From a virus: a stretch of 64,000 nt of DNA. Under the pieces are notes generated by a model. It worked only from the letters and a program-made list of their open reading frames with translations, was not told the DNA's origin and did no database searches. Positions 889 through 47,932 of the stretch are shown piece after piece. Position numbers and translations under genes: made by a program. Location of the stretch: UHGV virus genome UHGV-0289908; one strand, 5' to 3'. How positions within the stretch are numbered: position 1 is the first letter of the stretch; each line of letters begins with the position of its first letter.

Positions 889-1662
889 ATGACAAATAGA
901 AGTAAAAAACATGAATACATGAACCAGACCTTCACTACAAATGAGGGGTACAATATCAAGATTGTAGATTATGTTAATAGTCGCAATGTGACAGTTGAAT
1001 TTGACAATGGATATAGAACCAATGCTCAACTTGGCTCAATTTTAAAGGGGAGAGTCTCATTCCCCTTTCACCCCTCTGTATATGGGGTAGGTTGCTTGGG
1101 GGTTGGAGAGTATCTGGCAAGTCATAAAAGAAAACACACAAAGACCTACAAAGTATGGCATAGCATGATGGCACGCTGTTATAGCAACTCTTGCTTGGCG
1201 AGCAGGAGCACTTATATGGATTGCTCTGTATACGAGGGATGGCACAATTTCCAAAACTTTGCCAAATGGTATGAAGACAACTATTATGAGATAGAGGGGG
1301 AGCAAATGCACTTGGACAAGGATATTCTTGTAAAGGGCAATAAGGTTTATTCCCCCGACACCTGTGTATTTGTTCCAGAAACCATTAACGGACTGTTTGT
1401 CAAAAGCAATGCCATTAGAGGGGCATTGCCAATAGGTGTCAGCTATCATAAAAAAGACAGGATGTATTACTCTCGATGTAATAATCAGCTATTGGGGAAG
1501 ACTATCACCATTGGGACTTTTACCACCCCCGAGGGTGCGTTCGAAGCCTATAAAGAATACAAAGAGAAGTATATTAAAGAAGTGGCAGAGAAATATAGGG
1601 GCAATATTCCTTCTCATCTGTATGACGCACTAATCCAGTATGAAGTCGAAGTTACTGATTAA
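889..1662 (+). CDS. Free-standing HNH homing endonuclease with a C-terminal AP2-type DNA-binding domain
   Basis: N-terminal Y-x2-W-x2-M-x2-RCY motif (YKVWHSMMARCYS), typical of phage HNH-AP2 endonucleases. HNH-like core MHLDKDILVKGNKVYSPDTCVFVPETIN. AP2-like segment GVSYHKKDRMYYSRCNNQLLGKTITIGTFTTPEGAFEAYKEY. RBS GGAGGGG 5 nt upstream of ATG 889. Confidence 0.75.
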   Translation: MTNRSKKHEYMNQTFTTNEGYNIKIVDYVNSRNVTVEFDNGYRTNAQLGSILKGRVSFPFHPSVYGVGCLGVGEYLASHKRKHTKTYKVWHSMMARCYSNSCLASRSTYMDCSVYEGWHNFQNFAKWYEDNYYEIEGEQMHLDKDILVKGNKVYSPDTCVFVPETINGLFVKSNAIRGALPIGVSYHKKDRMYYSRCNNQLLGKTITIGTFTTPEGAFEAYKEYKEKYIKEVAEKYRGNIPSHLYDALIQYEVEVTD

Positions 1663-1677: not shown

Positions 1678-2803
1678 ATGGATAGAGATGAATTATTAGA
1701 GTTGTATTCAACGGAAGATGTGATTAACTTAATGATGGACTTAGGGTCAACTTACCCAACTCCAGACCATCAAGGGAACTTATACTTTAACACAGTCTGC
1801 CATGGCAGGAGACTCTAAGAAGTTGCTATATTATCCCGAATCACGATTAATGATGTGTTTCAGTTGCTGTGGCTCTCTGAGTCTTTTTGACGTAGTTAGT
1901 GGAGCATTAAATATGGACTTTGGAGAATCCTTCAAATATCTTGCCAAACGCAAAGGTGTTGCACTTGGCAAGAGAAAGTTGGGTCTCCAAACCCTAAAAA
2001 TTGAAAATGAAGATTTAGAATTCTTAAGTATACATTTATACAAACCTAAGAAACAAAGCATTGAACTTCCTGCTTTTTCAGAAACAATTCTTAATGTATT
2101 CATGCCTGTATATCCATTAGATTGGTATAAAGAGGGGATTGGAGAAGAAGCCGCTAAATTATTTGAAATCGGGTACTACCCGTCTCAGAATCGAGCAACT
2201 ATCCCTCATAGAGACATCAATGGTAATCTGGTTGGAATTCGAGCTAGAAGTTATAATGATTATGAAGTTAACAACGGAAGAAAGTACATGCCCATTACTG
2301 TGCAAGGATTAACGTATCGGTATCCTATGTCTCACAATTTATATGGGATATATCAGAATCAAGACAACATCAGAAGACATAAGCGAGCTATTATCTTTGA
2401 ATCAGAGAAGAGTTGTTTACTTTATGAAACATTGTACGGCAGAGACAAAAACATCACTGTTGCACTATGTAGCATGAACATGTCTTTGTATCAAAGAGAC
2501 CTCTTGCTTAACCTTGGGGTCAATGAGGTCATCTTTTGCCTTGATAAACAATACACCCTAGAATGCTTAGAGACCAAAAAAGGTAAGGAATATCTTGGCT
2601 TCGTGTCATATGTTAAAAAGCTCAAAAGATTATCGGCAATGTTTATGAATTACTGTCAAGTATCTGTCGTATTGTGTTGGGATGATAGAATCGGTTATAA
2701 AGATGCACCTATCGACAGAGGGATTGCCACTTTTGAAGAACTACTGAATGAGAAATACTTAATTAGTGATACGTCACAATTTGATGAACTAATTGACGAA
2801 TAA
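1678..2803 (+). CDS. DnaG-like DNA primase, apparently interrupted by a +1 frameshift. The N-terminal zinc-finger fragment is 1678..1818 in one frame; the Toprim and catalytic remainder is 1802..2803 in the +1 frame.
   Basis: RBS GAGGAGGAAGGAC then ATG 1678. Frame A reads ...NLYFNTVCHGRRL then stop at 1816. Frame B reads (M)AGDSKKLLYYPESRLMMCFSCCGSLSLFDVV..., supplying the C-x2-C half of a CHC2 zinc ribbon. Spliced across the shift, the two halves (CH ... CxxC) form a complete DnaG-type zinc-binding domain. Downstream the sequence is primase-like (EGIGEEAAKLFEIGYYP, Toprim-like IIFESEKSCLLYE, VIFCLDKQ). Confidence 0.65.
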
Positions 2804-2818
2804 CGGGAGGATTTGAAT

Positions 2819-4600
2819 ATGAAGTATATTGTTAAGAATAAAGATTATAGTTATGTAGCAGACACGGAATTATTAGAGCTGTTATTACAACAGCGTGGGG
2901 TAGCAAATCCTCAAGGATTATTAAACTTAGACCCGTCATGTATTCATGATGGGATGTTATTTAACAACATGAAGTGGGGGCTTGAGTTGCTAGCATGGCA
3001 CATTAACAATGGTAGCCGTATCCACATTATTATTGACTCAGACGTTGATGGCTTTACCTCTGCCGCCTTTATGTTCCAATACTTAACCGACTTAGGAGTA
3101 GAAGCAACTTACTCTACACACGTTGGTAAGGAACACGGTATTACCGAGAAGGCTATTGCGGGCTTTGATTTTGATTTATTAATTGTGCCAGACGCAGGAA
3201 CTAATGATGTTGAAATGAGCAAATACTTAGCAGACCAAGGTAAGGATATTATTATCCTTGACCACCATAAATTTGAAGGAGAATACAACACTCATGCCTG
3301 TGTTATCAACTGCCACGACGGACACTATCCCAACAACACCTTATCGGGGGTAGGAGTGGTTTACAAATTCTGTCGTGAATTTGACAAGATGTATGGTTTT
3401 GATTTTGCAAATTATTATTTAGACTTGGTTGCAGTAGGTCTTGTTGCAGATAGTATGGACTTACGCAACTTTGAAACTCGATTCCTTGCATTAGAAGGAA
3501 TTAAGCTGATTGGACAATGTAATGAGTTCTTAAAAGAGATTGCCATTGAACAAGAGTTCAGCTTAGGAGACGAAATCACCTTACACGGTATCAGTTGGTA
3601 TATTGCCCCATTAATCAACGGTGCTATTCGTGGTGGGTCTCAAGAAGAGAAGATTCGTGTGTGGGAAGCTCTTGCGGGATTCCGAGCAGAAGTTGAGTAT
3701 AAGCCACGCAAGTCAGCCAAGAATCCTAATCCACAGATTGAGATTCAAACCTTACAGAAAGCAATGGTGCGAGTATGTAAGAGTATTAAAGGGAAGCAAG
3801 ACCGTGAAATCAAAAAATCTGTTGCCACCATGCTAGACCACATTGAAGCAGAGGGGTTAGCAGAAGAGAAAATCATTATGATGGACGTGACAGATGTACT
3901 GGCTCAGTCTCATACAGGACTTGTTGCCAACAAACTTGCTTCTCAATTCAAACGTCCAGTTATCTTGTTGCGAGACAAAAAGAATGATGATTCGTCGTAT
4001 GGTGGCTCTGGTCGTAACTATTCACGATTTGCCGTTGACAATCTACGATTATTCCTATTGGAAACTGGACAATTTGAATCGGTGTCGGGACATGATTCTG
4101 CATTTGGATTTTCACTGCCTAAAGCCAATGTAGAAACACTACGCACACAGGTCAATGAACAGTTAAAAGACGTGGTAATTGAAGACGTGTATCATGTTGA
4201 TTATGAAATTGCTGTGGGTCGCTTAAAAGAGAAACATGTGAAGCAGGTTGGACAATGGAAGAACATGTGGGCAAATACGCTACCAGAACCAACGTTTGCC
4301 ATCACAGATGTTTATATTTCATCTGAGGAAATCAAGCTCTTGGGTGAGAAGAAGAATATCATTAGGTTTGACATTGTTCGTGGAGACGAAAAGATTGCCT
4401 TCATCAAACGATTTGCGTCAGAATCGTTGTATAATGAAATCATTCACCGTTCTGCTCATGGGTTGTCAAGTGGGAATAAACGACTCAAACTGACAGTTAT
4501 TGGGAAGTTCTCCATTAATAAGTTTAATGGAAATGAATACCCACAAGTGGAAATCGTTGATGTACTGAGTGAGGTACAAGCTCGCAAAGTAATGTTCTAA
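2819..4600 (+). CDS. RecJ-like DHH-family single-strand DNA exonuclease or phosphoesterase
   Basis: DHH motifs IIIDSDVDGFTSAA, LIVPDAGTND and ILDHHKF. DHHA1-like glycine-rich segment SSYGGSGRN. RBS GGGAGG 8 nt before ATG 2819. The track start at 2813 is a TTG. Confidence 0.7.
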   Translation: MKYIVKNKDYSYVADTELLELLLQQRGVANPQGLLNLDPSCIHDGMLFNNMKWGLELLAWHINNGSRIHIIIDSDVDGFTSAAFMFQYLTDLGVEATYSTHVGKEHGITEKAIAGFDFDLLIVPDAGTNDVEMSKYLADQGKDIIILDHHKFEGEYNTHACVINCHDGHYPNNTLSGVGVVYKFCREFDKMYGFDFANYYLDLVAVGLVADSMDLRNFETRFLALEGIKLIGQCNEFLKEIAIEQEFSLGDEITLHGISWYIAPLINGAIRGGSQEEKIRVWEALAGFRAEVEYKPRKSAKNPNPQIEIQTLQKAMVRVCKSIKGKQDREIKKSVATMLDHIEAEGLAEEKIIMMDVTDVLAQSHTGLVANKLASQFKRPVILLRDKKNDDSSYGGSGRNYSRFAVDNLRLFLLETGQFESVSGHDSAFGFSLPKANVETLRTQVNEQLKDVVIEDVYHVDYEIAVGRLKEKHVKQVGQWKNMWANTLPEPTFAITDVYISSEEIKLLGEKKNIIRFDIVRGDEKIAFIKRFASESLYNEIIHRSAHGLSSGNKRLKLTVIGKFSINKFNGNEYPQVEIVDVLSEVQARKVMF

Positions 4601-12810: not shown

Positions 12811-13980
12811 ATGGCATTAGTTATTAAACGAGATGGAAATTTAACAGGGTTTAACAAGAATAAGATTAAGGTGGCAATTTTAAAAGCAATGGAGTATGGT
12901 AGCGGCATTGTCAATAAAGAGATTGCCGAAACTGTTGCTCAAGAAGCTGAAAATACATACAATGTTGATGGAAAGATGACAGTAAGCATTGCAGAGATTG
13001 AAGCATTCGTGTTTCAACAATTAGTCCAACACGGACATGAATTAACCGCACGTGCCTATGAAGGATACCGTTCTGTTCAAGCCTTCAAACGTGAGACAAA
13101 CACAACGGATGAATCAATCTTGGGGCTAATTCGTGGAACAAATGAAGAAGCTATCAATGAGAACTCAAACAAAAATGCTTACATTGCTTCTACTCAACGA
13201 GACCTTGTAGCAGGAGAGGTTTCAAAAGACCTTGCACGTAGACACTTAATTCCTGCTCATATTGTGCAAGCTCATGATGAAGGTGTCATTCACTATCACG
13301 ACCTTGATTATGCGTTACAACAAATTCCAAACTGTAACTTAGTTAACTTAAAAGATATGTTGGATAATGGCACTGTGATTAATGGAAAACGTGTTGACTC
13401 TCCAAATTCATTCTTAACTGCTTGTACTATTGCTACTCAAATTATGGCACAGGTTGCAAGTGGACAATTCGGAGGACAAACAAGCTCATTATCGCACTTA
13501 GCTCCTTACGTTCGTAAATCAAGAGAGCGTTACTATGACTTATTAAAGGACACAATCAACTCTATTGACGAGTTAAATAACACAGTTGATAAGTTAGTTA
13601 AGAAGGAGATTGCTTCTGGAGTACAGACAATCCAATATCAAATACAGACGCTCGCAACATCTAATGGTCAGTCACCTTTCGTTTCTTTATTCATGTATTT
13701 AAACGAAGATGAAGAGTATATCGAAGAGATGGCTTTAATCATTGAAGAAGTATTAAAGCAACGCATCTTAGGGGTGAAGAATGAGCAAGGAGTATACATT
13801 AGTCCTGCATTCCCTAAATTGCTTTACGTTCTTGATGAGAACAATACATACGAAGGTAGCGAATACTACTACTTAACTAAATTAGCAGTTGAATGTGTGT
13901 CTAAACGCATTGTTCCAGACTTCATCAGTGCTAAAAAGATGAAAGAACATTATGAAGGACAAGTGTTCCCTTGTATGGGT
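12811..13980 (+). CDS. nrdD: Anaerobic ribonucleoside-triphosphate reductase NrdD, exon 1 (ATP-cone and N-terminal catalytic half)
   Basis: Begins MALVIKRDGNLTGFNKNKIKVAIL, an ATP-cone. Class III RNR-like throughout. The exon ends ...EGQVFPCMG at a T, the nucleotide expected at a group I 5' splice site. An in-frame stop follows 3 codons into the intron. Confidence 0.8.
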
Positions 13981-14948
13981 AAGTAAAACTGCCCATGTAA
14001 AACTCGGTGAACCTAGAAATCTAGGGTGTATAATCAGCGATTAGTAGCATTAGGAAATGAGTGCTAATGATTATGCTAACAGGGGAAGTCGCATAGATTA
14101 TCCTGTGCTAAGTCTCAACATGCAGTATAGGAGGAGATGTCATGTATACTGTATATAAAGCCACCAATGTAAATAATCATAAAATCTATATTGGGGCAAC
14201 TAACAATTTAAAACGAAGAATAAATGAACACAAAAACCACGCACGCAAAGATAAGAGTAGATTCCACGGTGCAATTTTAAGGTATGGAATTGAAAGTTTT
14301 GTTTTTGAAATACTTTTACAATGTGAAAACAAAGAAGAAATGTTTGAAAAAGAAAAAGAGATGATTGCCCTTTTTGACTCTACGAACCCAGAGATTGGCT
14401 ATAACGAGACCGAGGGAGGTAGAGGAGGTCAAACTCACGACATACACGGAGAGAGAAATCCTATGCACGGCAAACTTTACACCGAAGAGGAGAGGAAAGC
14501 TCTATCGGACAAATTAAAAGGTCGAAAGATAACTGCCGAACATAGGCACAAAATAAGCTCAAGTCTCAAAGGAAAAGAAAAGAGTGAGCAACACAGGTTG
14601 AATTTATCAAAGGCTCTTAAAGGGAATCTTCCATCCAACTCCCGCAAAATCTCTGTGATACATACGATAACTGGAGAAATATTAACCTTTAACTCAGAAG
14701 CGGAAATGGAACGAGCGTTAAAATGTGGTCGTGCAACGGTTAAAAGTGGGCGAATTACCAAGAATGGATATAAATTGTATGTTGAGAAAAGTCAAGAGAC
14801 TATCGAAAGCATAGCATAAGAGAAAAACTTATGTGAAGAAGCGAGTAGAGTACATTTGAGGTGGAATTCCTCATTTGGAAGTGCCGAGGTCTTGTGTGTT
14901 GGTAATAGACATGCAAGACATGATATAGTCCAACCTCGCAAGAGGTTG
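13981..14948 (+). mobile_element. Group I-type self-splicing intron interrupting nrdD. It carries a homing endonuclease ORF.
   Basis: Inferred from the split nrdD reading frame. Exon 2 resumes at 14949 (CRSFLSPWKDENG...) directly after a G at 14948, as expected for a 3' splice site. The ~970-nt insert has an internal GIY-YIG ORF with its own RBS. The T4 nrdD (sunY) intron is the established precedent. Confidence 0.7.
14142..14819 (+). CDS. GIY-YIG homing endonuclease, intron-encoded
   Basis: N-terminal KIYIGATNNLKRRINEHKN (GIY-x10-YIG-type motif). Central NUMOD-like repeats (RKALSDKLKGRKITAEHRHKISSSLKGKEKSEQHRLNLSKALKGN). C-terminal DNA-binding tail. RBS AGGAGGAG before ATG 14142. Confidence 0.8.
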   Translation: MYTVYKATNVNNHKIYIGATNNLKRRINEHKNHARKDKSRFHGAILRYGIESFVFEILLQCENKEEMFEKEKEMIALFDSTNPEIGYNETEGGRGGQTHDIHGERNPMHGKLYTEEERKALSDKLKGRKITAEHRHKISSSLKGKEKSEQHRLNLSKALKGNLPSNSRKISVIHTITGEILTFNSEAEMERALKCGRATVKSGRITKNGYKLYVEKSQETIESIA

Positions 14949-15908
14949 TGTAGAAGTTTTTTATCTCCATGGAAAGATGAGAACGGAAACTACAAGTGGT
15001 ATGGTCGTCAGAATTTAGGAGTGGTCACTTTAAACCTACCAGATGTAGCATTAACTGCAAAAGGTGACTTAGACATGTTCTGGAACATTCTTGACCGCAG
15101 ATTAGAATTATGTAAAGAAGCATTAATGGTGCGAGTAGACTTATTGCGTGGAACACCATCTGATATTAGTCCAATCCACTGGCAATATGGAGCTGTAGCA
15201 CGACTTAAAAAAGGTGAAACTATTGACTCTATTATTGATAGTGGAGCTTGTTCTATTAGTTTAGGATACATTGGTCTTTGCGAAACTGTACGTGCTTTAA
15301 TTGGACAGTCACATACTACTCCAGAGGGTGAGAAGTTGGCAGTTGCAATTATGAAACGATTACGAGAATCAACAGACCGATGGAAACAAGAAACTGGCTT
15401 AGGATTTGGGCTTTACGGGACACCATCTGAATCTTTAACTTACCGTTTTGCTACTAAACTTCAACAACGTCATGGTATCATTGATGGAATCACTGACAAG
15501 TTATACTTAACAAACAGCTACCATGTTCACGTTTGCGAAGAGATTGACGCTTTCTCTAAAATGGCATTCGAGTCACAATTCCAAAAGATTTCATCTGGTG
15601 GAACTATTTCATATATTGAAGTGCCTAACATGAAGCACAATTTAGAAGCTCTACACCGAACAGTAGAATTCATGTATGAGAACATGCAATACTGTGAAAT
15701 CAATACTAAATCAGACTATTGCCAAGAGTGTGGATACGATGGAGAGATTTTAATTGATGACGAACTTGAATGGTATTGTCCAAACTGCGGTAACAGAGAC
15801 AAGAGCAAGATGAACGTTGTCCGCAGGACTTGTGGCTATTTAGGGGAGAACTTCTTCAACAAAGGTCGCACTCAAGAAATCAAAGAGCGAGTGTTACACT
15901 TAAACTAA
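14949..15908 (+). CDS. nrdD: NrdD exon 2, including the C-terminal glycyl-radical domain
   Basis: The frame of track ORF 14856..15908 continues CRSFLSPWKDENGNYKWYGRQNLGVVTLNLP... and ends ...VVRRTCGYLGENFFNKGRTQEIKERV, the glycyl-radical RxCGY motif of class III RNR. Joined, exons 1 and 2 give about 710 aa. Confidence 0.8.
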   Translation, partial: CRSFLSPWKDENGNYKWYGRQNLGVVTLNLPDVALTAKGDLDMFWNILDRRLELCKEALMVRVDLLRGTPSDISPIHWQYGAVARLKKGETIDSIIDSGACSISLGYIGLCETVRALIGQSHTTPEGEKLAVAIMKRLRESTDRWKQETGLGFGLYGTPSESLTYRFATKLQQRHGIIDGITDKLYLTNSYHVHVCEEIDAFSKMAFESQFQKISSGGTISYIEVPNMKHNLEALHRTVEFMYENMQYCEINTKSDYCQECGYDGEILIDDELEWYCPNCGNRDKSKMNVVRRTCGYLGENFFNKGRTQEIKERVLHLN

Positions 15909-15927: not shown

Positions 15928-16290
15928 ATGGCAGTTTACGAGTTAAAAGATTTTAAATATGAGGTGAAGGGGTCTGGCAATAGCTTTAAGCCCCATGCCC
16001 CTGTGCTAAATTGGTTTTTTATTCATGGTAATAAAGGGATAGAAACTTTTAATGGAATACCATCTGGGGTTTATAGCAAACTTGTTGACTTCATGAATAA
16101 TTGCGAACAATTCTCTCTGTCGCTTCATCAATGCGAGGGGACAACCACAGACTTTATTATTGTCAAAGGACGTGCATTCAATGGCATTCGTGAAATGAAG
16201 CAATGGATTAAAACTTGTGAGAACAAGTATCCTACTTACAAATATCTAATTGCGGATTACGAAACAGGACAGATTGAGCGTTTTATGTAA
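15928..16290 (+). CDS. Hypothetical protein lying between nrdD and nrdG
   Basis: RBS AAGGGAG before ATG 15928. No motif recognised. Confidence 0.4.
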   Translation: MAVYELKDFKYEVKGSGNSFKPHAPVLNWFFIHGNKGIETFNGIPSGVYSKLVDFMNNCEQFSLSLHQCEGTTTDFIIVKGRAFNGIREMKQWIKTCENKYPTYKYLIADYETGQIERFM

Positions 16291-16341
16291 TTTACAACTG
16301 GGGCTATGTGCCCCTTTTGCCATATCTATAGGAGGAATACT

Positions 16342-16845
16342 ATGAATTATCAGTTAGTGAAGTACAACAATATCGGCAATGGAATCGGCATCAGAACAAG
16401 TTTGTTCGTGACAGGATGTTCACATGGTTGTAAAGGATGTTTCAATCAGTCTATTGCTAACAAAAACGCAGGAGAGCCATTCACAGATGACGTTAAAACA
16501 GCAATTTTACAGTCATTAGAGCCTTCTTATATTGCAGGGTTATCTTTATTAGGAGGTGAGCCCATGGTGTCATACAACGCTCCAGAGTTAGCCAAACTAT
16601 GCCGTGAAGTGCGAGAGCTACATCCCACAAAGAATATATGGGTATATAGTGGCTTTACCTATGAGCAGATTATTGCAGACCCAATCAAACTAGAGTTACT
16701 GGAACAGTGCGATGTTCTAGTTGATGGGAAGTTTGAACAAAACCTATACTCTCCTCTGCTACGATTTAGAGGGAGTAGCAATCAGAGAATCATTGACATA
16801 AAGAAATCCCTAGAATCTGGTGCTGTGACACTATTCTTGGAATAA
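16342..16845 (+). CDS. nrdG: Anaerobic RNR-activating protein NrdG (radical SAM)
   Basis: RBS AGGAGG then ATG 16342 (MNYQLVKY...). Radical-SAM cluster motif GCSHGCKGCFN. Size and position next to nrdD fit NrdG. Confidence 0.8.
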   Translation: MNYQLVKYNNIGNGIGIRTSLFVTGCSHGCKGCFNQSIANKNAGEPFTDDVKTAILQSLEPSYIAGLSLLGGEPMVSYNAPELAKLCREVRELHPTKNIWVYSGFTYEQIIADPIKLELLEQCDVLVDGKFEQNLYSPLLRFRGSSNQRIIDIKKSLESGAVTLFLE

Positions 16846-16951: not shown

Positions 16952-17425
16952 ATGACAACTAAATTATACTTACGTGGATTTGAGGAAGTTCCAACTCAAT
17001 TTAAACAAGTAGAGAATGAAACAACCATCCTCCCAGTTCGAGGAGACGCACGCAGTGCAGGATACGATTTCTATTCCAAAGAGACCGTAACAATTCCTCC
17101 ACATCAATCTCATTTATTCTGGACAGATGTGTGTGCATACATGCAAGACAATGAGGTATTGTTAATTCATGTACGCTCATCCATTGGTGTAAAGAAAGGG
17201 TTAATGCTTAAAAACACAACAGGGGTGATTGACTCTTCATACTATGCAAATCCAAGCAACTATGGAAACATTGGAATCTGCTTATACAACAATTCTGACA
17301 AACCAGTTGTGATTGAAGCACAAGAACGCATTGCTCAAGGGGTATTCCAAAACTATTTAGTGACAGACGAAGACTCTACATTACACATGGAACGTTCTGG
17401 AGGATTCGGTTCATCTAACCGATAA
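16952..17425 (+). CDS. dut: dUTP diphosphatase (trimeric dUTPase)
   Basis: Conserved dUTPase motifs AGYDFYS, RSSIGVKKG, GVIDSSYY and C-terminal RSGGFGSS. Confidence 0.85.
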   Translation: MTTKLYLRGFEEVPTQFKQVENETTILPVRGDARSAGYDFYSKETVTIPPHQSHLFWTDVCAYMQDNEVLLIHVRSSIGVKKGLMLKNTTGVIDSSYYANPSNYGNIGICLYNNSDKPVVIEAQERIAQGVFQNYLVTDEDSTLHMERSGGFGSSNR

Positions 17426-19105: not shown

Positions 19106-20107
19106 CTAAACTTTTTGAACGTATTTACTGTTCATTGAAATCCACCCTGCACCAGACTTTAATTGTCCCAGTCCATTAGATTCCTTAACGATTGTATATA
19201 CATCGTTTTTATAAACAGTTCCCACAGCTTTAGAATCGAAGCTGTCTGATTGACGAATTGTTAAAGCGTCTGTTGTGATTTTGACCTTAAATGAGGTTGG
19301 TGTTGCTTCCACTTTTTCAAGGTCAAAATCCCATAACCATGAAACAATATCAGACACTAAAATCTTGTTTCCATTGATTTTAGCTACTTCATAAGTTGAC
19401 CCATTCACCCAAGATGGGATAGCCTTACCTTGTGTACTTCCGTCTGTTGGAGCGTAGTGAGTTGCTTGAGCCTTAACTTTCACCTTATCTCCCACCTTGA
19501 AGCTAGATGTGTTCGGTTGGCTTGGGGCAGGTTGTGATACCACAACTTTTGTTAACCCTAAGTATTCGATGATTGACTCTGCAACAGCTTCTGCATATTG
19601 TTGTTGCCCTTTGTCAGAAGTGATGATTTCATAGTCCGATACAGTATCCATGAATCCACCCTCTACTAAGATTGCAGTTGCGTTACATCCTAATACTGCG
19701 AACTGTGCTTGCTTAACCCCACGATTTCGCAGACCTGTTTTTGATGCTAATTTTGGTGCTACAATGCTTGCTATCTTTTTATCTTCAGCAGTGCCATATG
19801 TATGCCAGTAAACCTCTGTACCTGTACCGCCACCCGCATTTTCATGGATGCTGACAAATAAATCTGGTTTATAGCTATTGCAACGTCGTACTCGTTCTGC
19901 TAATGAAATGTCTGTTTTCCCACTTGGGTCATCAGTACGATGGATAGTTACATTGTATGCAGAAAGAATTGAAGTAATTTTGCGTACAACAGAGTCATTC
20001 ATAGTCCACTCTTTCACAATCCCTCTTGAACCGTTCATTGTTTGTTTCCCCGCAGTATTGAATCCATGCCCTGCATCTAACACTAAAATTTTGTTTGCCA
20101 TGAACAT
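19106..20107 (-). CDS. N-acetylmuramoyl-L-alanine amidase endolysin (Amidase_3 catalytic domain plus C-terminal SH3-like cell-wall-binding repeats)
   Basis: ILVLDAGHGFNTAGKQ ... DLFVSIHENAGGG ... AILVEGGFMD are Amidase_3 hallmarks. C-terminal repeats GSTYEVAKINGNKILV and GTVYKNDVYTIVKESNGLGQLKSGAGWISMN are SH3b-like. Confidence 0.85.
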   Translation of the reverse strand: MFMANKILVLDAGHGFNTAGKQTMNGSRGIVKEWTMNDSVVRKITSILSAYNVTIHRTDDPSGKTDISLAERVRRCNSYKPDLFVSIHENAGGGTGTEVYWHTYGTAEDKKIASIVAPKLASKTGLRNRGVKQAQFAVLGCNATAILVEGGFMDTVSDYEIITSDKGQQQYAEAVAESIIEYLGLTKVVVSQPAPSQPNTSSFKVGDKVKVKAQATHYAPTDGSTQGKAIPSWVNGSTYEVAKINGNKILVSDIVSWLWDFDLEKVEATPTSFKVKITTDALTIRQSDSFDSKAVGTVYKNDVYTIVKESNGLGQLKSGAGWISMNSKYVQKV

Positions 20108-20166: not shown

Positions 20167-21207
20167 TTACAGGTCTTTTAGACCTTTTTGTTCTACCTGT
20201 TTTATTCCCTCGTCAGAGAAGAATTGTCCTAATACTTCGTCTTTAGGACGGTCGTCATAGGTGCTGACTAAATCTATTGAAGCCCAACCGACAATCTCTT
20301 TAACCACTTCCGCAGGAATCCCCGCTCGCAATAGTTCGGTAGTAAAGTTATGTCTCAGACAGTGGAAATAAAAATCAACGTTAAGCATTTTCCCAAATGT
20401 CTTTGCGTATGAATCTAATGTTGTTTCTTGCATAGGAACGAACTCTCCGTTTCTACGAACCACAAACATCTCATCCACGTCTTCTGGAATACCTAACGCT
20501 TTACGCTCTTCTGCCCATAAGTCAAAATACTTTTTAAACTTATTTGCTAAGACATAACGCTCCAATAACTTCCCTTGTTGTCCTCTTCCTTTAGTTTTCA
20601 TTTTCTCGGGAGTCATATATAAAGCCCCACCAAAGCGTAAGTTTTCATCTTTGATGTAAGACATTTTAAATCTTAACAACTCCGCCTTGCGTGCCCCACT
20701 AGCCCAAGCAAGAGCCAATACACAGGCTTTCTGATACTGCTGTTTAGACACTAAAAAGTCTAGTAGTTTTTCAACCTGCTCGTCCTCTAGCACTGTCTTC
20801 TCTCGCACTGGTGCTAAAACAGGATTCGGAACTTTATTCACAATATTCTTGAAGTTCTCCCACTTCTCTTCTTCATCCAACATATCCTCGATATATTTAG
20901 ACAGACTACTTAACGAAGATTTTAATGCTCGAATGCGAGCAGGAGATAAACCTTCCTTCATTAAGTGTCCTTGAAATCCCAAAATGTCTTTTTTCTTAAT
21001 GTCACAAAAGTCTTTATTCTTACGATGGTTCATTAACCATACAAAAAAGATGTTAAGGTTTGAGCGAGTAACCTTTGCAGATTTCTCACTATGGTCTACT
21101 GTTAGGTAGTAATCCATAAACTCATCAATTAACTCTAGGTTGTCTGGATTGATTTTCGCAATATCCTCTGCTGTGGTAGAAAATGTTTTCTTTGTCTTTC
21201 GTGCCAC
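20167..21207 (-). CDS. Tyrosine recombinase or integrase (phage integrase family)
   Basis: C-terminal catalytic signature HCLRHNFTTELLRAGIPAEVVKEIVGWASIDLVSTYDD (the R, H-x2-R, H and Y residues). Probable GTG start at 21207, preceded by AAAGGGGAAAC. The track extends to 21246 in the same frame. Confidence 0.8.
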   Translation of the reverse strand: MARKTKKTFSTTAEDIAKINPDNLELIDEFMDYYLTVDHSEKSAKVTRSNLNIFFVWLMNHRKNKDFCDIKKKDILGFQGHLMKEGLSPARIRALKSSLSSLSKYIEDMLDEEEKWENFKNIVNKVPNPVLAPVREKTVLEDEQVEKLLDFLVSKQQYQKACVLALAWASGARKAELLRFKMSYIKDENLRFGGALYMTPEKMKTKGRGQQGKLLERYVLANKFKKYFDLWAEERKALGIPEDVDEMFVVRRNGEFVPMQETTLDSYAKTFGKMLNVDFYFHCLRHNFTTELLRAGIPAEVVKEIVGWASIDLVSTYDDRPKDEVLGQFFSDEGIKQVEQKGLKDL

Positions 21208-21248
21208 TTTGTTTCCCCTTTCAAATTGGCAAGAGGTGTATAACACCT

Positions 21249-34844: not shown

Positions 34845-37800
34845 TTATCTCCATCTATAAATAGCACTAAAGTTTACGTCAACATTTCCTGTTCCCAAGT
34901 GCACACATTTTAACTGTTGCCAGCCAGAGTTACGAAGGGTGAAGTTTAGAACAATGTGACCTGCCCCACCTTCTACATATCCGTTAATTCCATAGGTTAA
35001 GCCATTCATTGCGTCAGTTACCCCTCCAAAGAATCCGATTGTTACAGGAGGGTAGTTCCATAAGCTCGATACAGGCAATCCCCCGATAGCAACCCCTCCA
35101 GAATGACCTCCTTTTGAAGCGATAACACGACCTTGAACAAAGACTAAATCTCCTAAATACACAGCTTGTCCTACTGCACTTGACGTTGTAAAGTTACCTG
35201 TGTCTGCATATAAGAACGGAGTAAAACTTTGTCGCCAATTATGAGGGACTGTTGCCCCATCATAAGATAGTCTGCTATCATCGTGCATGACAAGAAACTG
35301 ACCTCCTACCCCATTTTTCATAAATGAAGCATTTAAACTGTCATTGCGACCTATTTCTGTATATTGAGATAAATCGTCTCCTCGGGATATTCTTATGCGA
35401 CTTCGAGTACCTGCTGTGTCAATGCGAACATCTACGTCATTGGTTGAGTTAGGGTTGTGCAAATCAATATAACGACCGATTTCTATTGGAAGTGCATAAT
35501 TGGTTTGAAGAAATGAAGCTCCATACACTCCACCCTTACTTGTAATAGCACCTTGTGCAATGATTTCCCCATTGGCTCTAATATGTGTCCCTGCATTCAG
35601 TTCTCCTGTTGTAGACACTAGGTTGTCCATAATTACAGTTCTCAATGTATCTTTCGTATTGCACACCTTGATTTGGTGAGGTTCTACTGTTGCTACGCCT
35701 GTATTTACTTGGTACTCCCCGAGCTTTTCTAGTCTTATTCCTTCAATAGAAGTATGGATTCCTTGTGACCAACTATTGAGTGTTCCGTCATCGTAGCCAG
35801 ATTTTCCATGGAATCCATAACCATCTGCCCAATAGTATCCGTCCATTTTGGGATTATAGTCTGGAGAGGTGGCAAAGACAATATTTTTTGCATACAGCCC
35901 TTCCTTGTCCGCTCTAAATAGAGCGTCATTGGAAGCATTTAAAACAGAGATGTATCCATTACCGTTGGTGCTTCCTCCTGCAACAAAGTTAGTTCCTTTG
36001 AACGTACCAGAGGTAATTGTATCTGCCACGATTGTCCCAGTTGTAATCTTGCTACCATTAATTGTAGTTGACCCACCATTAATGATAGAAACAATACTAT
36101 TTGCACTTAAAACATCCGCATGTAACTTGTTGGCAGTGATTGAACCATCTACAATTAACTCTCCACCTGCCATACGAGTAACTTGAATATTACGAACCTT
36201 TAGTGTTCCACTAAAAGGTGTCCATCCCTCACATTGAATGAACACTCTAAATTTACGAGAAGCGGCAGGTAAGATTACAGAAGATGATACAGTCTTCGTC
36301 TCATTTGTTACCCTATCACTGTATAGATAATGTATAGCCTTGCCAGTGCCATCATAGGCAACAATTCCAATGGCTACCCCACGGTAAGATGAGTCAGTTC
36401 CTCCGTCGGTTGAAGCTCCCATCATAGTGGTTGAGATGTCTCCTTTTAATCTGAACGCTTCTCCACCATTGCAAGTGTAGTAGTCTGAAATATAGCTGTT
36501 TCTGGTGAGAGTACCTTTAACAAACCATTTTCCATCTGCTTCGGCTGACCCCGGTGTAAAACCATATTTTGTAGCGGTATTATCATTTAACTGTGCGTAG
36601 TTGGTGAAGTCTCCAATAGCCAACCTATCGGCAGTAATGCTTTTGGCTTTGATATATTCTCCGTTAATCCAAACCTTACCACCATCTAAGAAGATACCTT
36701 GTGTAGCCCCATTATTAGTTAACTTATTGAAGATATCTGCCTGTGTCTGACCGTTTACCTTGTCTTGAGCAATATTCCCTGCTTCCGTTGAAGTGGTATA
36801 GTCCATTGCTTTGCCCCAGTCGCTTGCTGTGTAGCTTCCCGAAGCTCTGGCAGTTTTACAGATTTTTAAATCTCCCGTACCAGAAAGATTTGTTACCCAT
36901 AAGTCTCCTACCTCATATGGAGTGGTAGGTGTTGAAGTAAACACACGCTTTTTAGACGTTGCTAAGTTTTTAGCATTCTCTGCGTCTGCGTCTGTCAATT
37001 TGACCCAACCCGTTCCAGAATAACGATACGTAACCTTGGTTGATGTATTGTACCAGATGTCTCCAGTATGAGCCGTTTTTAGCTCTGTGGTCGTCCAAGC
37101 AGTTGCAGGGTCGCTAGATTGTGCCCATGTTTCCACTTTTCCATCTACTTGCGTTTGTAGTCCATCAAGTGCGGTGTCAACTTCTTTTTTCAAGTCATTT
37201 GTCAATTTATCCGCATGTTCCTTAGTCTTTGTTGCCACAGAATCCAATATTGCTTGACGCTGTGTATAGTATGCGTTAAATTTAGCATTGAACTCCGAAG
37301 GAGTAATTGTGACGGTTGTTGAGCTTGATAGATTCAATGTTCCCACATATGTTTCTAACGCATTGTACGCACTGATAAAGTTTGTGGTTGAAATACTATA
37401 AACATTTGCTTGATTAATAATTGATGATTTCTCTAGTTTGATTTCTTCCCAGTCACGTAAAACTTGCTGTTTCTCAGAAGCAGTTAACTTACTATCACTT
37501 GCGATTTCATTTAGCTTTGTTGTTGCATTCTGTGCTTCGGTCTTCGCACTGTTCGCAGTGCTTTGAGCCGACTCTGCTACATTCTTTGCACTTTCCACAT
37601 CTGCCATTACATCCTCTGGAGCAGGCGACCAACCAGTCACTCTGTTCCCCTTGACAATAATCATTTCAGATACTGTAATAGAACCAACAAAGTTGTCCAT
37701 TCTAATTTGAAGTCCTGTAAACCCTTTTGTTTCATCGGTTGGGATGGTGACAGTATGGGTAATAGTTCCACCAGTATTTGAAGCAACATTGATGGTAGGA

Positions 37801-40800
37801 GACATAGCCAACCATTGTCCTGCTGTTTCACCCAGTGAGCCTTGAATCGTTCCATTTGTTTGTATTTTGAAAGTTCCTGTTGCTCCTTGGCTTACGCTAA
37901 AAGTAAATCCTGTTGTGACCTCTTCTCCTGCCAATCCTGCATAATGAGCACTTTTATTTACAAACTCGTAAATGCTTGTACATTGGCTTGTCGAGTTAGT
38001 CCCAGTGACGCTTACCTTGTTTGCTGTTCTCGCAAGCAAGTTTCGAGTCCCCACTTCTAGGTCTGCAACATCATATAACTTAGAAACGGTGAGGGTGTCA
38101 CTTACTCCACTAGCGTTTGTATTTAGTTTGAACGTGATTGATGTAATTGAGTCTGTAAATAATGAACTTGTCTTGCTTACCGTTAATACTCCATTACTAA
38201 TAGCCAATCCGTTCTGACCACTGACAACATTCACCCAAGTAGGAGTTCCACTTGATGAATAATTTGTACAATACTGCCAACTAGAATATGAACAGTTTTG
38301 TAATTGAGGTGTTAAAGTAATATTGTCTGGAAAGAATGTGATACCTCCATCTGTTGACTTGAATACTTGACTAGAAGCTAAAATATCTGCTATCTTAGCA
38401 TTTTGTCCTTTACGAGCCTTAGACCAAGAGAATATTTTGTTAAAAGTTTTTCCATCGACAATAACAGGGATGGTAACTGACCCATTTTCTGCTAATGAGC
38501 TACCTGTATTAGCTTGGAATGTTAATTTAGTTCCAGACTTAGTAATTGTCATACCAGAAGGATTTATAATTGTTCCAAAGGTAGGAGTTACAGATGTTGC
38601 TCCTTTGTAAGCAATGACATCACTTGTTGTCGAAACCGCAGTAGCAATACTTCCATCGTTTTCAGTCTGGAATGTATGTGTTTCATTGGTTAAGATAACG
38701 GTGTATGCGTCATCTCCATCTACTCCATCCGTTCCATCTTCCCCCACATATTTTTTCCATGTATAATCACCAAAAGTATTACTATCTGCTTCGGTGAAAT
38801 CAACATATGTTCCGATGTAAGTACCTACTGTTTCTCCATTGTTTGCAGTAAACGTCTTTCCATCATTTGAGTATTTGATGTGAAGATATGAAGTTCTACC
38901 ATCACTACCTTGAGCACCTTGAATACCACGCTCTCCATCTTCTCCCTTAATTTTACTCCAAGTGTATGAAGTGTTTGAAGAAGGAGCTGTTTGAGAGGTT
39001 GTTGAAGCTACCCCCATGTACTCTGTTGTGTCTGTCGGTGTGGTAGTCATTGGGTTACCGTTGGCATTTGCAGAATATCTTACATGGAAGTATGTCGTTA
39101 ATCCATCTTCCCCTTTGACACCTTGAATACCTTGAGCACCTTGAGCCCCAGTGTCTCCCTTCTGTCCTGTGATACATACAGGGTTGGTTGTCGTTGTTTT
39201 TTCATTAGAGTATTTTGTAACAGTGCGACTCCAGATATATTTTCCACTTTCCCAAGTTGGAGAAGTAGTTGTCCATCCACTTGTTGGAGCAGTTGTTGCA
39301 GAACTTGATTTGGCATATTCTACGTCAACAGATGTGATTGATACTCCGTCACTACCATCTGCCCCATCGTTTCCGTCTACTCCGTCATGCCCGTCTCTAC
39401 CTGTGACACATACTGGCGATGTTGTAGTCGTGTTATTGTTTGTATACGTAATAACAGAGCGTGTCCACACATACTTTCCAGACTCTGGTGTTGGGGCAGT
39501 ATCGCTCCATGACCCACCTGTTAAAGTAGTCTGAGAAGTTGAATGGTAGTATTGTTCCTTGATAGAAGATACTCCGACACCTTGTTCTCCCGAAGCTCCG
39601 TCTGAAACTTTTACAACTGTTAACTCATCATATTTGTTTCCAACTGTACAACGAATTGTAACAGATTTTACAGAGCTTGAGTTGAAGATTGTTGAGTTGT
39701 CATGTGGAAGCGTATAATAACTTTGGTTTCCATTTGTTGCGGAAGTGATTGTTGACCAAGCATCCTCTCCTGCACGTCTAAATTCCCAAACATACTTAGG
39801 GCTTGAGAATCCTTGAACCTGTGCTTGAATTTTAATTGAAGACGGAGTAGGTGCTCCTGTAAAGTTGTTAGTATACTTGAATACTTGTTCTCCACTTAGT
39901 GTCACTACCTCTGCATTTGTTCCGCTTTCACCTTGTTTTGAACAAGCCCAACTAAATACTTTGTTAAAAGTTTTTCCATCAATAGTAATTGGAATGATAA
40001 AAGTCCCATCGTCTGCTGTTAAGACTGTTGACTGAGAAACAGCAAAGGTAATGATGTTCCCAGATTTTGAAACGGCAATACCACTAGCACTATTGATTGT
40101 TCCGATTGTAAAGTCGGTACGAGTTGTGCGACCTTGGTACACAGACACCTCAGTTGTATATGTCTTTGATGACATAGGGAGTCTATCATTGAATGTTGGA
40201 ATAACTTGAGCTTCATTTGATAAGAAAACCGAATATGCGTTCTCTAGGTCTTCGATTGCGGGAGTCCAGTCTGTAGCCTTAGTTCCTCGTTCAAGTTTAA
40301 TCATACTAAATCGAATCGAACCTGCGTCTGCCACCGCCATTGAAACCTTGCAGTTATTTGGGTTGATGTCACTTGTCGTTAGCTTGCTTGTTGCTTCGAC
40401 TTTAAACCATTGTCCCACTGGAGAACTTTTTGGAATGTTGTTAACACAGATGTCAGAGAATGTGCTTCCATCTGTATGATAGCAACGTAGATATAATTGG
40501 TTATTATCTTGGTTTAAAGCGACATCCGAGTCAATGTAAATCCATCCAGATAATGTGTATGTGTCTCCTTGTTTAACAGAAGGTAAGACAACGTCCTTTT
40601 GAATTTGTTGACGTGCCGAATTTCCTGTTGTAGTTCTGCGTACACGGTAAGCCTTGTTATTCATATAACCGTCAACAACATTTGCCACAGAGAAACTTCC
40701 TAAGTTCCCTGTAGAGTCTGTTAATAAGTTTGTTCCTCCGATAACGACTCCTTCTACAACCGAGTTTGCATATTCTTTTGTTTTTGTTGCGATTGCGTCA

Positions 40801-46900: not shown

Positions 46901-47854
46901 GTAGTCTATATTGGCTTTTGTCACTGTAATTTCACAATTAACAGTTTCTTCGTTTTCTACCTCTCCTGCACTGTTTGCTTCAAAGCTGTAGAAGGCATTT
47001 GTCATTTCTACTGAGTATTGACTAACACCGTCAAAAACCTTGGTAACTTCCAATTTACGCTGTGCTACCAATCCATCCCCACAATCAATGTTTACTACAG
47101 CACTAGCCTTGATAACATTAATATCTATTGAAGTTAATTTTACACGTTGTCCAACTATTCCAAAAGTACACCCATACTCCTGTTCAATAGATAGTACGGG
47201 AGCAATTTGTTTCGCTCCCTTGTAAACCAATACGTCTGTAAAAATAGACTGCACTTCGGACTTTGATACATCTCCGTCTTCTTTAGCTTTTACAACAAAT
47301 GCTTCACGAGACAGTGTGATAGTGTATCCATAGAATTGGGTTTCTGTAATAAAGTGTTCTAATCGGTCTGCTGTAGCTTCCCCTTGTTCCACTTTCTCGT
47401 CAATTTTTTGCATTGCTTCTACAAGACCACCCGCAGACTCTATCAAGTCTAAAGCGTCTTGACTTCGGTCTAAGATATTATCCCATGTGTCTGTAACATT
47501 CTCTCCGTCTCGGTGAAAGATACGACTATCGGAAATTAAGATGACCCCACGACCATAGTAGTTAACCATGACCATTTTCCCGTGTTGACTTTTATGAAAT
47601 TGTACAATTCCCACTCCATAGTCAACATAGAAATTATCTTCCCCAATATCTTGAACATTAAAAACCTCATGCAACTGGATATTATCCTCTGTAAGAATTT
47701 TAATGCGTTGAAATTGGTCGGGAACTTGTACTAATTGAATTACCCCATGCGTTGGAGAAATCTGTTGCGTTTCAGTTGGAATGTGCCAAGATATTGGGTT
47801 TCCATTCTCATCTCTATTCCATTGCATAATTAAAGAATTGTTATTTAATAGCAT
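43916..47854 (-). CDS. Large tail or baseplate protein (about 1312 aa) with an N-terminal docking domain, a long central coiled coil and a fibre-like C-terminal region
   Basis: Probable ATG at 47854 (MLLNNNSLIMQW) after AAAGGGGAG; the track extends to 47896 from a GTG. The N-terminal domain is paralogous to the 172-aa protein. The C-terminal motif EDIFNKLTNNGETQGIYLQDGKVYINGEYV is shared with the giant fibre. Confidence 0.55.
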   Translation of the reverse strand: MLLNNNSLIMQWNRDENGNPISWHIPTETQQISPTHGVIQLVQVPDQFQRIKILTEDNIQLHEVFNVQDIGEDNFYVDYGVGIVQFHKSQHGKMVMVNYYGRGVILISDSRIFHRDGENVTDTWDNILDRSQDALDLIESAGGLVEAMQKIDEKVEQGEATADRLEHFITETQFYGYTITLSREAFVVKAKEDGDVSKSEVQSIFTDVLVYKGAKQIAPVLSIEQEYGCTFGIVGQRVKLTSIDINVIKASAVVNIDCGDGLVAQRKLEVTKVFDGVSQYSVEMTNAFYSFEANSAGEVENEETVNCEITVTKANIDYTNYSLSVQGAPQGLRYKVGATGVTFTSAKGTSLPSSGSCLVVVTIDGSAYNKSFTWNKTRKGQDAKSLTLVGGQILRYETSDYSDIPSPSRSTISAKAVGLSGSPKWYVQNGSTWTLLEGKNGTELTFQHNDVNIWGSRKEVTIKCELEGYEDEITLVKLAAGSNGNDAITVVLTNESHTVAIDNSGYVHESEIAKATTNVMVFKGNQEVTPVLSKGQCEGCDIAFSNNTVRLLSMDNSFSTAIANINVTVEGITITKTWTISKAKQGSDGVTGADGKSYILNITEGTRSFTFSQINRDPRPSASATFIGTLYENGTEVMDDVSYYWVANGHIQGSSTKKTFTPTVASIFDESILNNDIQLTVTYKGYMIIQTIPISVTKDADGLDWVQEWNDTKTDVRGNLILTPKLFAGSYDQENDLITGVAIGKDVLNDGTTIGVAGYQNNKTTFLLDTDGTLMVGNPFEKNSAGLYYDGDQFTLKVNQLSIEGVDVPTVDDVVNKIEQSTNQAKEEVRAEITDVVGQVNELDSYVNNALKDGILDEVERAKITAMFDGLTREVNDVNAQYISIVNNHYLTNEAILVALLTAYESYSLKFEELSEMFSLLMLSEHIVPEDLEAFHSALSEFNELSSILYQAMSDALTSISETQAGIIVNEAKEEIRKEVDQVSNALDSLEETMNGDFKSGLIGTINLTNLRSKLTQLETEKLDIDGQYKGLIEHPKLGATSRTNLSKAKSELDTAHDQLVHKISSAIADMIMTEAELEEINALISAYGATLKVYSEVAQQANADIALNLAQGAVEALNQEDIFNKLTNNGETQGIYLQDGKVYINGEYVNTRNLKAIRNDGTETFKIDSEGNVHVRAATFYLVGDGGNSTNIPTKDEVYNKNEVDDLIEQIESKNMYRIEIHSSNGVIFKNGAINTTLSVRLYNWDKEITNEVDPTRFIWTRISSDHVGDTVWNNQHAIGSVSVDITSADVKARATFNVDFVDENGQSLLA

Positions 47855-47932
47855 TTTGCTCCCCTTTCTACAACAAATAGACATAAGGGACAACACAATG
47901 TTTTGTGCTGTCTATATGTCTATTTGCGTTAA

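Follow-up and report, generated by a model that had tools for sequence, protein, structure and literature searches.

A probable SPO1-type group I intron carrying a GIY-YIG endonuclease gene interrupts a phage nrdD at the presumed catalytic cysteine codon

In the 64-kb stretch of virus genome UHGV-0289908 analyzed here (referred to as the window), the gene for a class III ribonucleotide reductase (RNR), nrdD, is divided by a 968-nt insert that is very probably a group I intron, mobile and self-splicing, that belongs to the IA type of Gram-positive phages and is related to the DNA polymerase intron of phage SPO1. This assignment draws on the continuity of the gene across the insert, the nucleotides at both splice sites, a covarying fold, the family and catalytic residues of the endonuclease encoded within the insert, and a distribution that implies lateral transfer; from these observations we infer splicing itself, the activity of the endonuclease, and the position at which it cuts. 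A sequence-only reading of the window had proposed that a group I intron encoding a GIY-YIG endonuclease divides nrdD, and the splice sites, P1, the covarying core, the endonuclease family with its catalytic residues, and the in-frame restoration of NrdD all agree with that proposal. Residue positions are given in the numbering of the joined 709-aa NrdD of the window unless stated otherwise, labels such as L003, L028, and L137 denote the related loci and contigs that were compared, and the coordinates of all features are collected in Table 1.

Results

Two exons are predicted to restore one class III NrdD

The exon coordinates and the length of the insert given in the sequence-only reading agree with the open reading frame (ORF) list and with the raw sequence. 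The ORF that contains exon 1 spans 12811-13986, continuing past 13980 for one extra codon (AAG) before a TAA stop at 13984-13986, and exon 2, which lies in a different frame, begins with TGT (Cys) at 14949, reads CRSFLSPWKDENG, and ends at 15908. The insert between them (13981-14948) is exactly 968 nt long, and the nucleotides predicted to precede the two splice sites were read as T13980 before the 5′ junction and G14948 before the 3′ junction. A single NRDD profile in Pfam is shared out between the exons, with profile positions 1-262 on exon 1 and 264-562 on exon 2; exon 1 additionally matches the Pfam ATP-cone domain and exon 2 the Gly_radical domain. When joined, the 709-aa NrdD aligns end to end with PDB 9d3x (E = 8e-138) and also matches T4 NrdD (PDB 1h78; E = 1e-128), and both alignments are gap-free at the junction, so that the earlier proposal that the parts rebuild one NrdD held against both structures. 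The junction, MG|CRSF, falls between Gly390 and Cys391 in a conserved loop, and Cys391 aligns with T4 Cys290, which we take to be the catalytic thiyl-radical cysteine of class III RNR. All of the features sought for a class III RNR were found: the ATP-cone, NRDD, and glycyl-radical domains, the catalytic cysteine, the RxCGY motif, and an NrdG activase partner. The glycyl-radical motif RRTCGYLG, previously placed near 15880, is at 15822-15845 (residues 682-689). No frameshift or stop codon disrupts either exon, nrdG, or the endonuclease ORF, and by these comparisons the two exons are predicted to reconstitute one 709-aa class III NrdD.

Uninterrupted homologues from phage and Clostridia contigs (n = 19) read ATGGGN|TGYMGN exactly at the junction. 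The 24-mer expected from ligation of the exons, CCTTGTATGGGTTGTAGAAGTTTT, occurs uninterrupted in seven other contigs, in which nrdD is just 65-72% similar, in patches, to the window gene. The target sequence exists intact in these seven contigs, and the difference is not a presence/absence polymorphism within one phage.

Intervening sequences of other kinds were considered at this junction. Intein-like in-frame inserts do occur in the nrdD genes of related phages, at an NC|N site in L003, L004, L041, L049, and L050, and an intein at the window junction would be in keeping with them; it was rejected because the exon frames differ and a stop codon (13984-13986) stands one codon past the 5′ junction. 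A group II intron was rejected on the length of 968 nt, on the lack of a reverse transcriptase and of any group II match in Rfam, and on the positive group I signatures. An intein or group II intron at this site thus has a probability close to nil.

The insert contains a covarying group I core

The 6-bp P1 formed between the end of exon 1 and the internal guide sequence, with its U·G wobble, is of the AUGGGU/GCCCAU type and is kept in all seven same-site introns, and at the other end the intron closes with the omega-G, G14948, after P9, exon 2 following from 14949. P4 and Q elements are found in the intron's 5′ part, and the two hairpins between P3 and P4 are a trait of the SPO1-type lineage. 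P6 stems equivalent to that of the window flank the ORFs of the introns in Clostridium sporogenes phage CS01, Enterococcus phage EFP01, L028, and L029. Because P7.1 and P7.2 lie between P7 and P3′, the intron is placed in the IA type, at the level above the finer subgroups IA1, IA2, and IA3.

The secondary structure was evaluated on an alignment of 11 introns reduced to P6-deleted cores. Without guidance, RNAalifold recovered P3, both P3-P4 hairpins, P4, P5, P7.2, and P8, with compensatory changes in 41 of 54 pairs. When the P7 pseudoknot was included, 95.1% of alignment cells were paired, compared with 32-43% after the 3′ partners were slid by 1-3 columns; both sides were altered in a compensatory manner in 40 of 57 pairs, and the covariation score was 0.598 as against 0.06-0.11 for the slid alignments, with none of 500 shuffles attaining the observed values. 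P3, a long-range helix of 7 bp, is paired in 100% of cells across the 11 introns and has four positions with three or four Watson-Crick pair types, and P7 shows a single compensatory change, from U-A to C-G in Goe11. The unconstrained minimum-free-energy fold of the ORF-deleted intron (-113.7 kcal/mol) contains P1, P3, P4, P5, P6, P7.1, P7.2, P8, and P9.

Eight introns, among them the self-splicing SPO1 polymerase intron but neither that of the window nor its same-site relatives, served to build a covariance model of the P7-to-P7′ domain. This model matched 14793-14935 over its full length with 110.4 bits (E = 2e-21), the next best hit in the 64 kb having an E-value of about 0.7; neither the model nor motif searches found this intron family anywhere else in the window. 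In the window copy, all core helices are intact. A blastn search with the ORF-less intron identified SPbeta-like phages (the yonO intron; E = 1e-17), EFP01 (E = 5e-17), and 25 Clostridium sporogenes phages (E = 2e-15), the latter two at other nrdD sites, as well as DNA polymerase introns of SPO1-like (E = 8e-8) and Twort-like (E = 5e-4) phages; Psychrobacillus phage Perkons, which has an ORF-less copy, Enterocloster phages, and Bastille-like phages were also matched. A megablast search of the locus against phage genomes gave no match, and the locus therefore has no close cultured relative.

Table 1 Features of the interrupted nrdD locus and neighbouring genes of the window
Feature	Position	Strand	Description and basis
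nrdD exon 1	12811-13980	+	ATP-cone and N-terminal NrdD half, ends ...FPCMG; Pfam, PDB colinearity
P1 5′ strand	13975-13980	+	Exon AUGGGU; pairs with GCCCAU 13991-13996; U13980·G13991 wobble at the 5′ splice site
Probable group I intron, 968 nt, IA type, SPO1-related	13981-14948	+	blastn, covariation, minimum-free-energy fold, covariance model
Internal guide sequence (P1 3′ strand)	13991-13996	+	GCCCAU; sequence reading, fold, same-site introns
P3 5′ strand	14003-14009	+	CUCGGUG; pairs with 14882-14888; covariation and unconstrained fold
Two peripheral hairpins between P3 and P4	14012-14025; 14028-14076	+	Second with inner stem; covarying in SPO1-type relatives, fold
P4 around P5	14079-14106	+	P4 ACAGGG 14079-14084 / UCCUGU 14101-14106; P5 14087-14090 / 14096-14099
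P6 5′ strand	14113-14121	+	UCUCAACAU; pairs with 14779-14787; closes the loop holding the endonuclease ORF
Endonuclease ribosome-binding site	14129-14136	+	AGGAGGAG; sequence reading
Predicted GIY-YIG/NUMOD3 homing endonuclease gene, 225 aa	14142-14819	+	Pfam, TIGR01453, catalytic residues
P6 3′ strand	14779-14787	+	AUGUUGAGA; within the endonuclease ORF
R element and P7 5′ strand	14796-14809	+	GAGACUAUCGAAAG; within the last endonuclease codons
P7 5′ strand	14798-14803	+	GACUAU; within the endonuclease ORF; pairs with 14925-14930, pseudoknot with P3
P7.1	14814-14820 / 14828-14834	+	Between P7 and P3′
Conserved motif	14843-14853	+	GAGUAGAGUAC; between P7.1 and P7.2
P7.2	14853-14861 / 14869-14877	+	Between P7 and P3′
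P3 3′ strand	14882-14888	+	UGCCGAG; immediately 5′ of P8
P8 hairpin	14889-14919	+	GUCUUGUGUGU / ACAUGCAAGAC; covariation (9/9 pairs), fold
J8/7 and P7 3′ strand	14920-14930	+	AUGAUAUAGUC; conserved group I 'S' element; partial RF00028 alignment, covariation, covariance model
P9 hairpin and terminal G14948	14932-14948	+	AACCUC-GCAA-GAGGUU; fold; compensatory C-G to U-A in L137
nrdD exon 2	14949-15908	+	Cys391 first, glycyl-radical motif at 15822-15845; Pfam NRDD 264-562, Gly_radical
nrdG	16306-16845	+	Activating radical-SAM enzyme, NrdD partner; TIGR02491 179.7 bits vs cut-off 126; Pfam Fer4_12
dUTPase	16952-17425
Endolysin	19106-20107
Tyrosine recombinase	20167-21246	-	PF00589 65.5 bits, PHROG integrase; adjoins the endolysin gene

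The endonuclease frame and the RNA core share sequence

The insert was said to hold a complete GIY-YIG and NUMOD endonuclease ORF with its own ribosome-binding site, and both the Pfam matches (GIY-YIG, E = 3e-13; NUMOD3, E = 1e-5) and AGGAGGAG upstream of the ORF bear this out. Residues 3-211 give a full-length match to NCBIfam TIGR01453, 'group I intron endonuclease', with 88.8 bits against a cut-off of 56.05. When the protein was aligned with ten homologues and I-TevI, Y5, Y16, G18, R26, and E71 were invariant and H30 and N88 were at least 90% conserved; these residues match the catalytic positions of I-TevI (GIY, YIG, Arg, His, Glu, and Asn), and the endonuclease looks active by this criterion. 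A sequence search of the PDB returned just a weak match to T4 endonuclease II (E = 0.02), which adds nothing beyond the GIY-YIG motif.

The same-site homologues all finish with ...ETIESI(A), a tail encoded by J6/7-P7 of the ribozyme. In the window, the last 14 endonuclease codons overlap P6′, J6/7, P7, and the start of P7.1, and the 5′ strand of P7.1 contains the stop codon (14817-14819), so that about 40 nt serve both the endonuclease frame and the catalytic RNA core.

Independent halves or an impaired intron are improbable

Another reading of the locus is that of genes in pieces, in which no splicing takes place, the endonuclease gene is free-standing, and the two NrdD halves are translated apart and assemble, as for the NrdA of Aeromonas phage Aeh1 that is split by mobE. 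Split yet functional RNR genes exist (PMC3653736), gene callers list the two nrdD halves as separate coding sequences in all related contigs, and a TTG-start ORF at 14856 extends exon 2 upstream. This TTG codon, however, lies inside P7.2 and its use would place 31 unrelated residues ahead of exon 2, whose own first Met is well beyond the catalytic Cys, the split separates Gly390 from the catalytic Cys391 within a conserved loop, and the endonuclease ORF is flanked by a complete covarying group I core with the correct splice-site nucleotides. We therefore consider independently translated halves highly improbable and an intron by far the better description of the insert.

Several observations weigh against an intact, active group I intron of the proposed family. 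A permissive search with Rfam RF00028 aligned 14825-14952 with 18.1 bits against a threshold of 50 (E = 0.075), covering the 3′ part alone; two U·U mismatches are present in P7.2 of the window copy; P10, judged by eye from the sequence, is weak; and a search with the exact ligated 24-mer found no intron-less allele of the same phage, so that the evidence for homing is comparative. At the gathering threshold, an Rfam scan of the whole window gave no match, including group I and group II models. The partial RF00028 alignment does span the GAUAUAGUC element, a P8-like hairpin, a GNRA-capped P9, and the terminal G. Among 16 related and control loci scanned in the same way, just the contiguous T4 sunY core scored (105 bits), while no score was obtained for the SPO1 intron, in which an ORF breaks up the core, or for 14 further related loci. 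The SPO1 intron is an established self-splicing intron that served as a positive control in a recent study, in which ribozyme signatures were also reported to be often lost where an endonuclease loop interrupts the core (PMC11878797). The Rfam miss is uninformative because this proven intron and the ORF-containing relatives fail too. A search for P1-P9 folds with Rfam or Infernal, suggested in the sequence-only reading, came out divided, RF00028 remaining below gathering while the fold and the covariance model recovered the core.

The weak P10 and the mismatches in P7.2 could also signify a decayed or splicing-impaired intron, in which case nrdD would be a pseudogene or a host or phage cofactor would be needed, and ribosomes translating the endonuclease ORF across P6′, P7, and P7.1 could disturb folding. 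Against this, all core helices are intact and match the model over its full length at 110.4 bits, the exons, nrdG, and the endonuclease ORF carry no frameshifts or stops, and the endonuclease protein is kept unchanged on 11 contigs. Impairment is in our judgment quite improbable, and an intron competent for splicing remains the favored reading.

The distribution of the element implies lateral transfer

Eleven independent contigs (93-154 kb), among them a human-gut metagenome assembly, carry the exact endonuclease protein of the window in the same gene order, and the arrangement is therefore not an assembly artefact. Gut metagenomes in which the phage occurs include ERR414459, SRR11413611, and SRR11805531. 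Homologues with 50-95% identity exist in a larger protein database; a scan of IMG/VR for close relatives of the endonuclease found none. All homologues with readable context lie between the N- and C-terminal parts of NrdD, followed by nrdG and then, where the contig reaches that far, by dUTPase. The insertion in these loci is at the same site, ATGGGT|TGY, and at least ten metagenomic loci carry the element there.

The genes that host these elements are far more divergent than the elements themselves. The NrdDs interrupted by same-site endonuclease homologues (50-66% identical) are 25-33% identical to the window NrdD, and in L137 the flanking exons are 28-29% identical to those of the window at the protein level, compared with 66% for the endonuclease and 72-82% for the ribozyme cores at the nucleotide level. 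In L028 the relation is reversed, the exons being 51-69% identical and the endonuclease just 32%. Such incongruence between exons and endonuclease is the pattern expected from repeated lateral homing into a conserved target, and the distribution as a whole implies horizontal homing.

Phage nrdD is interrupted at many positions

Besides 390/391, at least eight other insertion points were found in nrdD among the genes compared. Inserts are located at 163/164 in EFP01, 174/175 in L003, L004, L041, L049, and L050 (in-frame and intein-like), 221/222 in CS01, about 276 in T4, 286-288 in L015, L024, L029, and L044, about 369/370 in L024, 547/548 in L138, and 686-688 in L004 and L015. The 390/391 site itself is occupied in the window, L028, L029, and L131-L138, and by a T4-type intron in L044.

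The inserts at 174/175 (L003 ~1020-1900, L004 ~1005-1885, and those of L041, L049, and L050) comprise about 280-300 in-frame codons at NC|N that start with CFKGNT... or CFKSNT..., and look like inteins. In L044 (2735-3600), whose nrdD is 42% identical to that of the window, a different intron with an unrelated 173-aa ORF is found at the same MG|CRS boundary; in its 3′ half it is closely similar to the T4 td/sunY cores (…CCAACGACTAACCCTGATGAATGTAAGGG…GAAGATATAGTCTGATCTGCATAGTGATATGCAGG…AACATAATG), and it has no obvious U·G at the 5′ splice site. Two different intron lineages therefore use one site.

A terminal G is near-universal in group I introns. In L134 (3800-3840) and L138 (2215-2250), and also in L135 and L136, the reading frame would put the start of exon 2 at TGCCGG and the end of the intron at ...GCACAA, with an apparent terminal A. 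This 3′ splice site is supported by a P10 of 5-6 bp (UUGGUA or AUGGUA with UGCCGG), and the nearest G, 2 nt downstream, would ruin the Cys codon and the frame.

Further interruptions were observed in individual relatives. L138 has a second one between residues 547 and 548 (2743-3736) with an HNH_3 ORF, which leaves its nrdD in three pieces. In L004 (3497-3776) and L015 (3407-3691), the glycyl-radical motif itself is split between RRTCG and YLG by about 280 nt that also shift the frame, possibly an ORF-less intron. The closest NrdD relative in IMG/VR (L013; 72% identity in the C-terminal segment) is without the 390/391 intron and has a same-frame insert of about 855 nt near residues 222-238 (3211-4067), either an intein or an intron. 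In L135 (1-338), the DNA polymerase III alpha gene upstream of its split nrdD has a weak Intein_splicing match in Pfam, which suggests further selfish elements in the replication genes of these phages.

Genomic context and host

The window encodes phage proteins that include a DnaE-type polymerase, a RecJ-like exonuclease, a RecD-like helicase, a primase, a sigma factor, tail-fibre and tape-measure-like proteins, and an endolysin, and has a GC content of 38%. The nearest NrdD relatives, at most 60% identical, come from Clostridium genomes and from a Clostridioides phage. On these grounds it is plausible that the host is a Firmicute (Clostridia), that the lifestyle is temperate, and that the niche is anaerobic. 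The sequence-only reading had called the virus a Firmicute temperate phage, and the tyrosine recombinase at 20167-21246, the Clostridium relatives of NrdD, and the presence of the endonuclease on human-gut contigs make this plausible and stop short of demonstrating it; the recombinase supports a temperate or plasmid-like lifestyle. An integrase gene is also present in L134 and L136, just past the dUTPase gene.

Between nrdD and nrdG, a 120-aa ORF (15928-16290) without a Pfam or NCBIfam match is missing from the near-identical contig L141 and is thus an indel polymorphism. A 257-aa ORF at 889-1662 has a weak C-terminal match to the AP2 domain (25 bits, below cut-off). Phage HNH homing endonucleases are often accompanied by this domain, so the ORF could encode a free-standing homing endonuclease. 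Very large ORFs make up part of the structural block, all on the minus strand: 34845-42764 (2639 aa), 52189-58749 (2186 aa), and 43916-47896 (1326 aa), of which the 2186-aa protein matches tape-measure-type PHROGs. In L067, the interrupted nrdD of Clostridium cuniculi has a purine riboswitch (RF00167, 86 bits; 1256-1357, minus strand) about 1.7 kb away.

Discussion

In the related public records and gene calls examined, the nrdD halves and the endonuclease are always listed as three genes, and the reductase therefore looks truncated, with its catalytic Cys parted from the N-terminal half. Recognition of the intron restores a complete 709-aa NrdD in annotation. In the sequence of events that we propose, the last exon bases of the nrdD pre-mRNA, AUGGGU (13975-13980), would pair with the guide GCCCAU (13991-13996) to form P1, and the core would fold with P3 (14003-14009/14882-14888) pseudoknotted with P7 (14798-14803/14925-14930), together with P4-P6, P7.1/P7.2, P8, and P9. 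Free guanosine would then attack after U13980, and the released exon would attack after the terminal G14948. The ligated mRNA, with the junction ...CCTTGTATGGGT|TGTAGAAGTTTT..., would be translated into a 709-aa class III RNR in which Gly390 is joined to Cys391. The endonuclease gene in the P6 loop has a ribosome-binding site of its own, and its product most likely binds nrdD alleles that have no intron and cuts them near ...ATGGGT|TGY... in co-infecting or recombining phage genomes; repair from the intron-bearing copy would then spread the element. Enzymes of the GIY-YIG type typically produce 2-nt 3′ overhangs at some distance from where the intron is inserted.

The locus offers a clean natural example of an endonuclease frame and a ribozyme core encoded on shared sequence, and of intron transfer between very divergent host genes via an invariant active-site motif. 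On balance we lean toward the view that the element represents a homing lineage that has not been described, combining an SPO1-type ribozyme with a TIGR01453 GIY-YIG endonuclease whose conserved C-terminal ETIESI tail is encoded by the J6/7-P7 core, aimed at the codon boundary immediately 5′ of the thiyl-radical Cys, and passed by repeated jumps between nrdD genes with less than 30% protein identity. The unrelated T4-type intron at this boundary in L044, together with the at least eight other insertion points, would make the nrdD of phages of the gut and of anaerobes an unusually dense natural arena of competition among introns, inteins, and homing endonucleases.

A match to the T4 nrdD (sunY) intron and its endonuclease I-TevII had been claimed on sequence alone, and proves to be an analogy in kind and not homology. 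Both elements interrupt a class III RNR gene with nrdG nearby, and both are IA group I introns with P7.1/P7.2 that encode an endonuclease of the GIY-YIG family. The T4 insertion, however, is at the codon equivalent to Tyr276 of the window, about 115 codons upstream of 390/391; the sunY core is contiguous (105 bits in Rfam), with the I-TevII ORF 3′ of P9, whereas the window ORF lies in P6 and overlaps P7; and the window ribozyme has no blastn similarity to the T4 nrdD intron. I-TevII and the window endonuclease are alike at motif level only, with just NUMOD3-type repeats in common (28% identity over 93 aa, E = 5e-4). The two elements differ in insertion site, in ribozyme lineage, and in where the endonuclease gene is placed; the window intron is an independent acquisition and not a homologue of sunY.

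Nor is the arrangement, called noteworthy in the sequence-only reading, unusual among Firmicute or gut phages: in addition to the metagenomic loci with the same element, nrdD is also split by introns in Clostridium sporogenes phages CS01-CS37 and in EFP01, and the splitting of nrdD is known (PMC3653736). The CS01 and EFP01 introns are 75-78% identical to that of the window in the 5′ domain and differ in insertion site (after the residues equivalent to Gly221 and His163 of the window, respectively); their records give the CS01 ORF as an HNH endonuclease and that of EFP01 only as a hypothetical protein, and call the halves separate genes, not introns. Lactococcus phage 949 also has a split nrdD, and nrdD is the RNR gene most often split in sequenced phages, with an intein in Clostridium phage c-st (PMC3653736). 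The supplementary table of a 2025 compendium of phage introns gives nrdD introns for T-even phages only (PMC11878797).

The ribozyme is homologous to those of the SPO1 DNA polymerase intron (which encodes I-HmuI) and its SPbeta-like, Bastille-like, Twort-like, and Enterocloster relatives. Common to these introns and the window are the GUGAACCUAGAAAUCUAGGGUGU segment, the two P3-P4 hairpins, the P4/Q element, GACUAUCGAAAG (P7), GAGUAGAGUAC, P7.2, GAUAUAGUC, and the covarying helices. The relatives differ in host gene (polymerase, yonO, and others) and in having an HNH ORF in P8 (SPO1) or P5 (Goe11), as opposed to the GIY-YIG ORF here. The P2 hairpin is absent from the window copy, as it is from CS01 and Nemo.

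With the T4 td intron and I-TevI, the window element shares a GIY-YIG ORF looped out from P6, alignable catalytic residues, membership in TIGR01453, and residence in a gene of nucleotide metabolism; it differs in the gene and the ribozyme lineage, the endonucleases resemble each other at motif level only, with about 25% identity (E = 5e-4), and the window ORF continues into P6′, P7, and P7.1. The element belongs to a known type, in which a group I intron of a phage carries a homing endonuclease and sits at a catalytic-site codon of a nucleotide-metabolism gene, and it leaves the understanding of group I introns and homing unchanged. Judged by architecture, it is nearer to T4 td/I-TevI; judged by ribozyme sequence, it takes its place among the SPO1-type introns.

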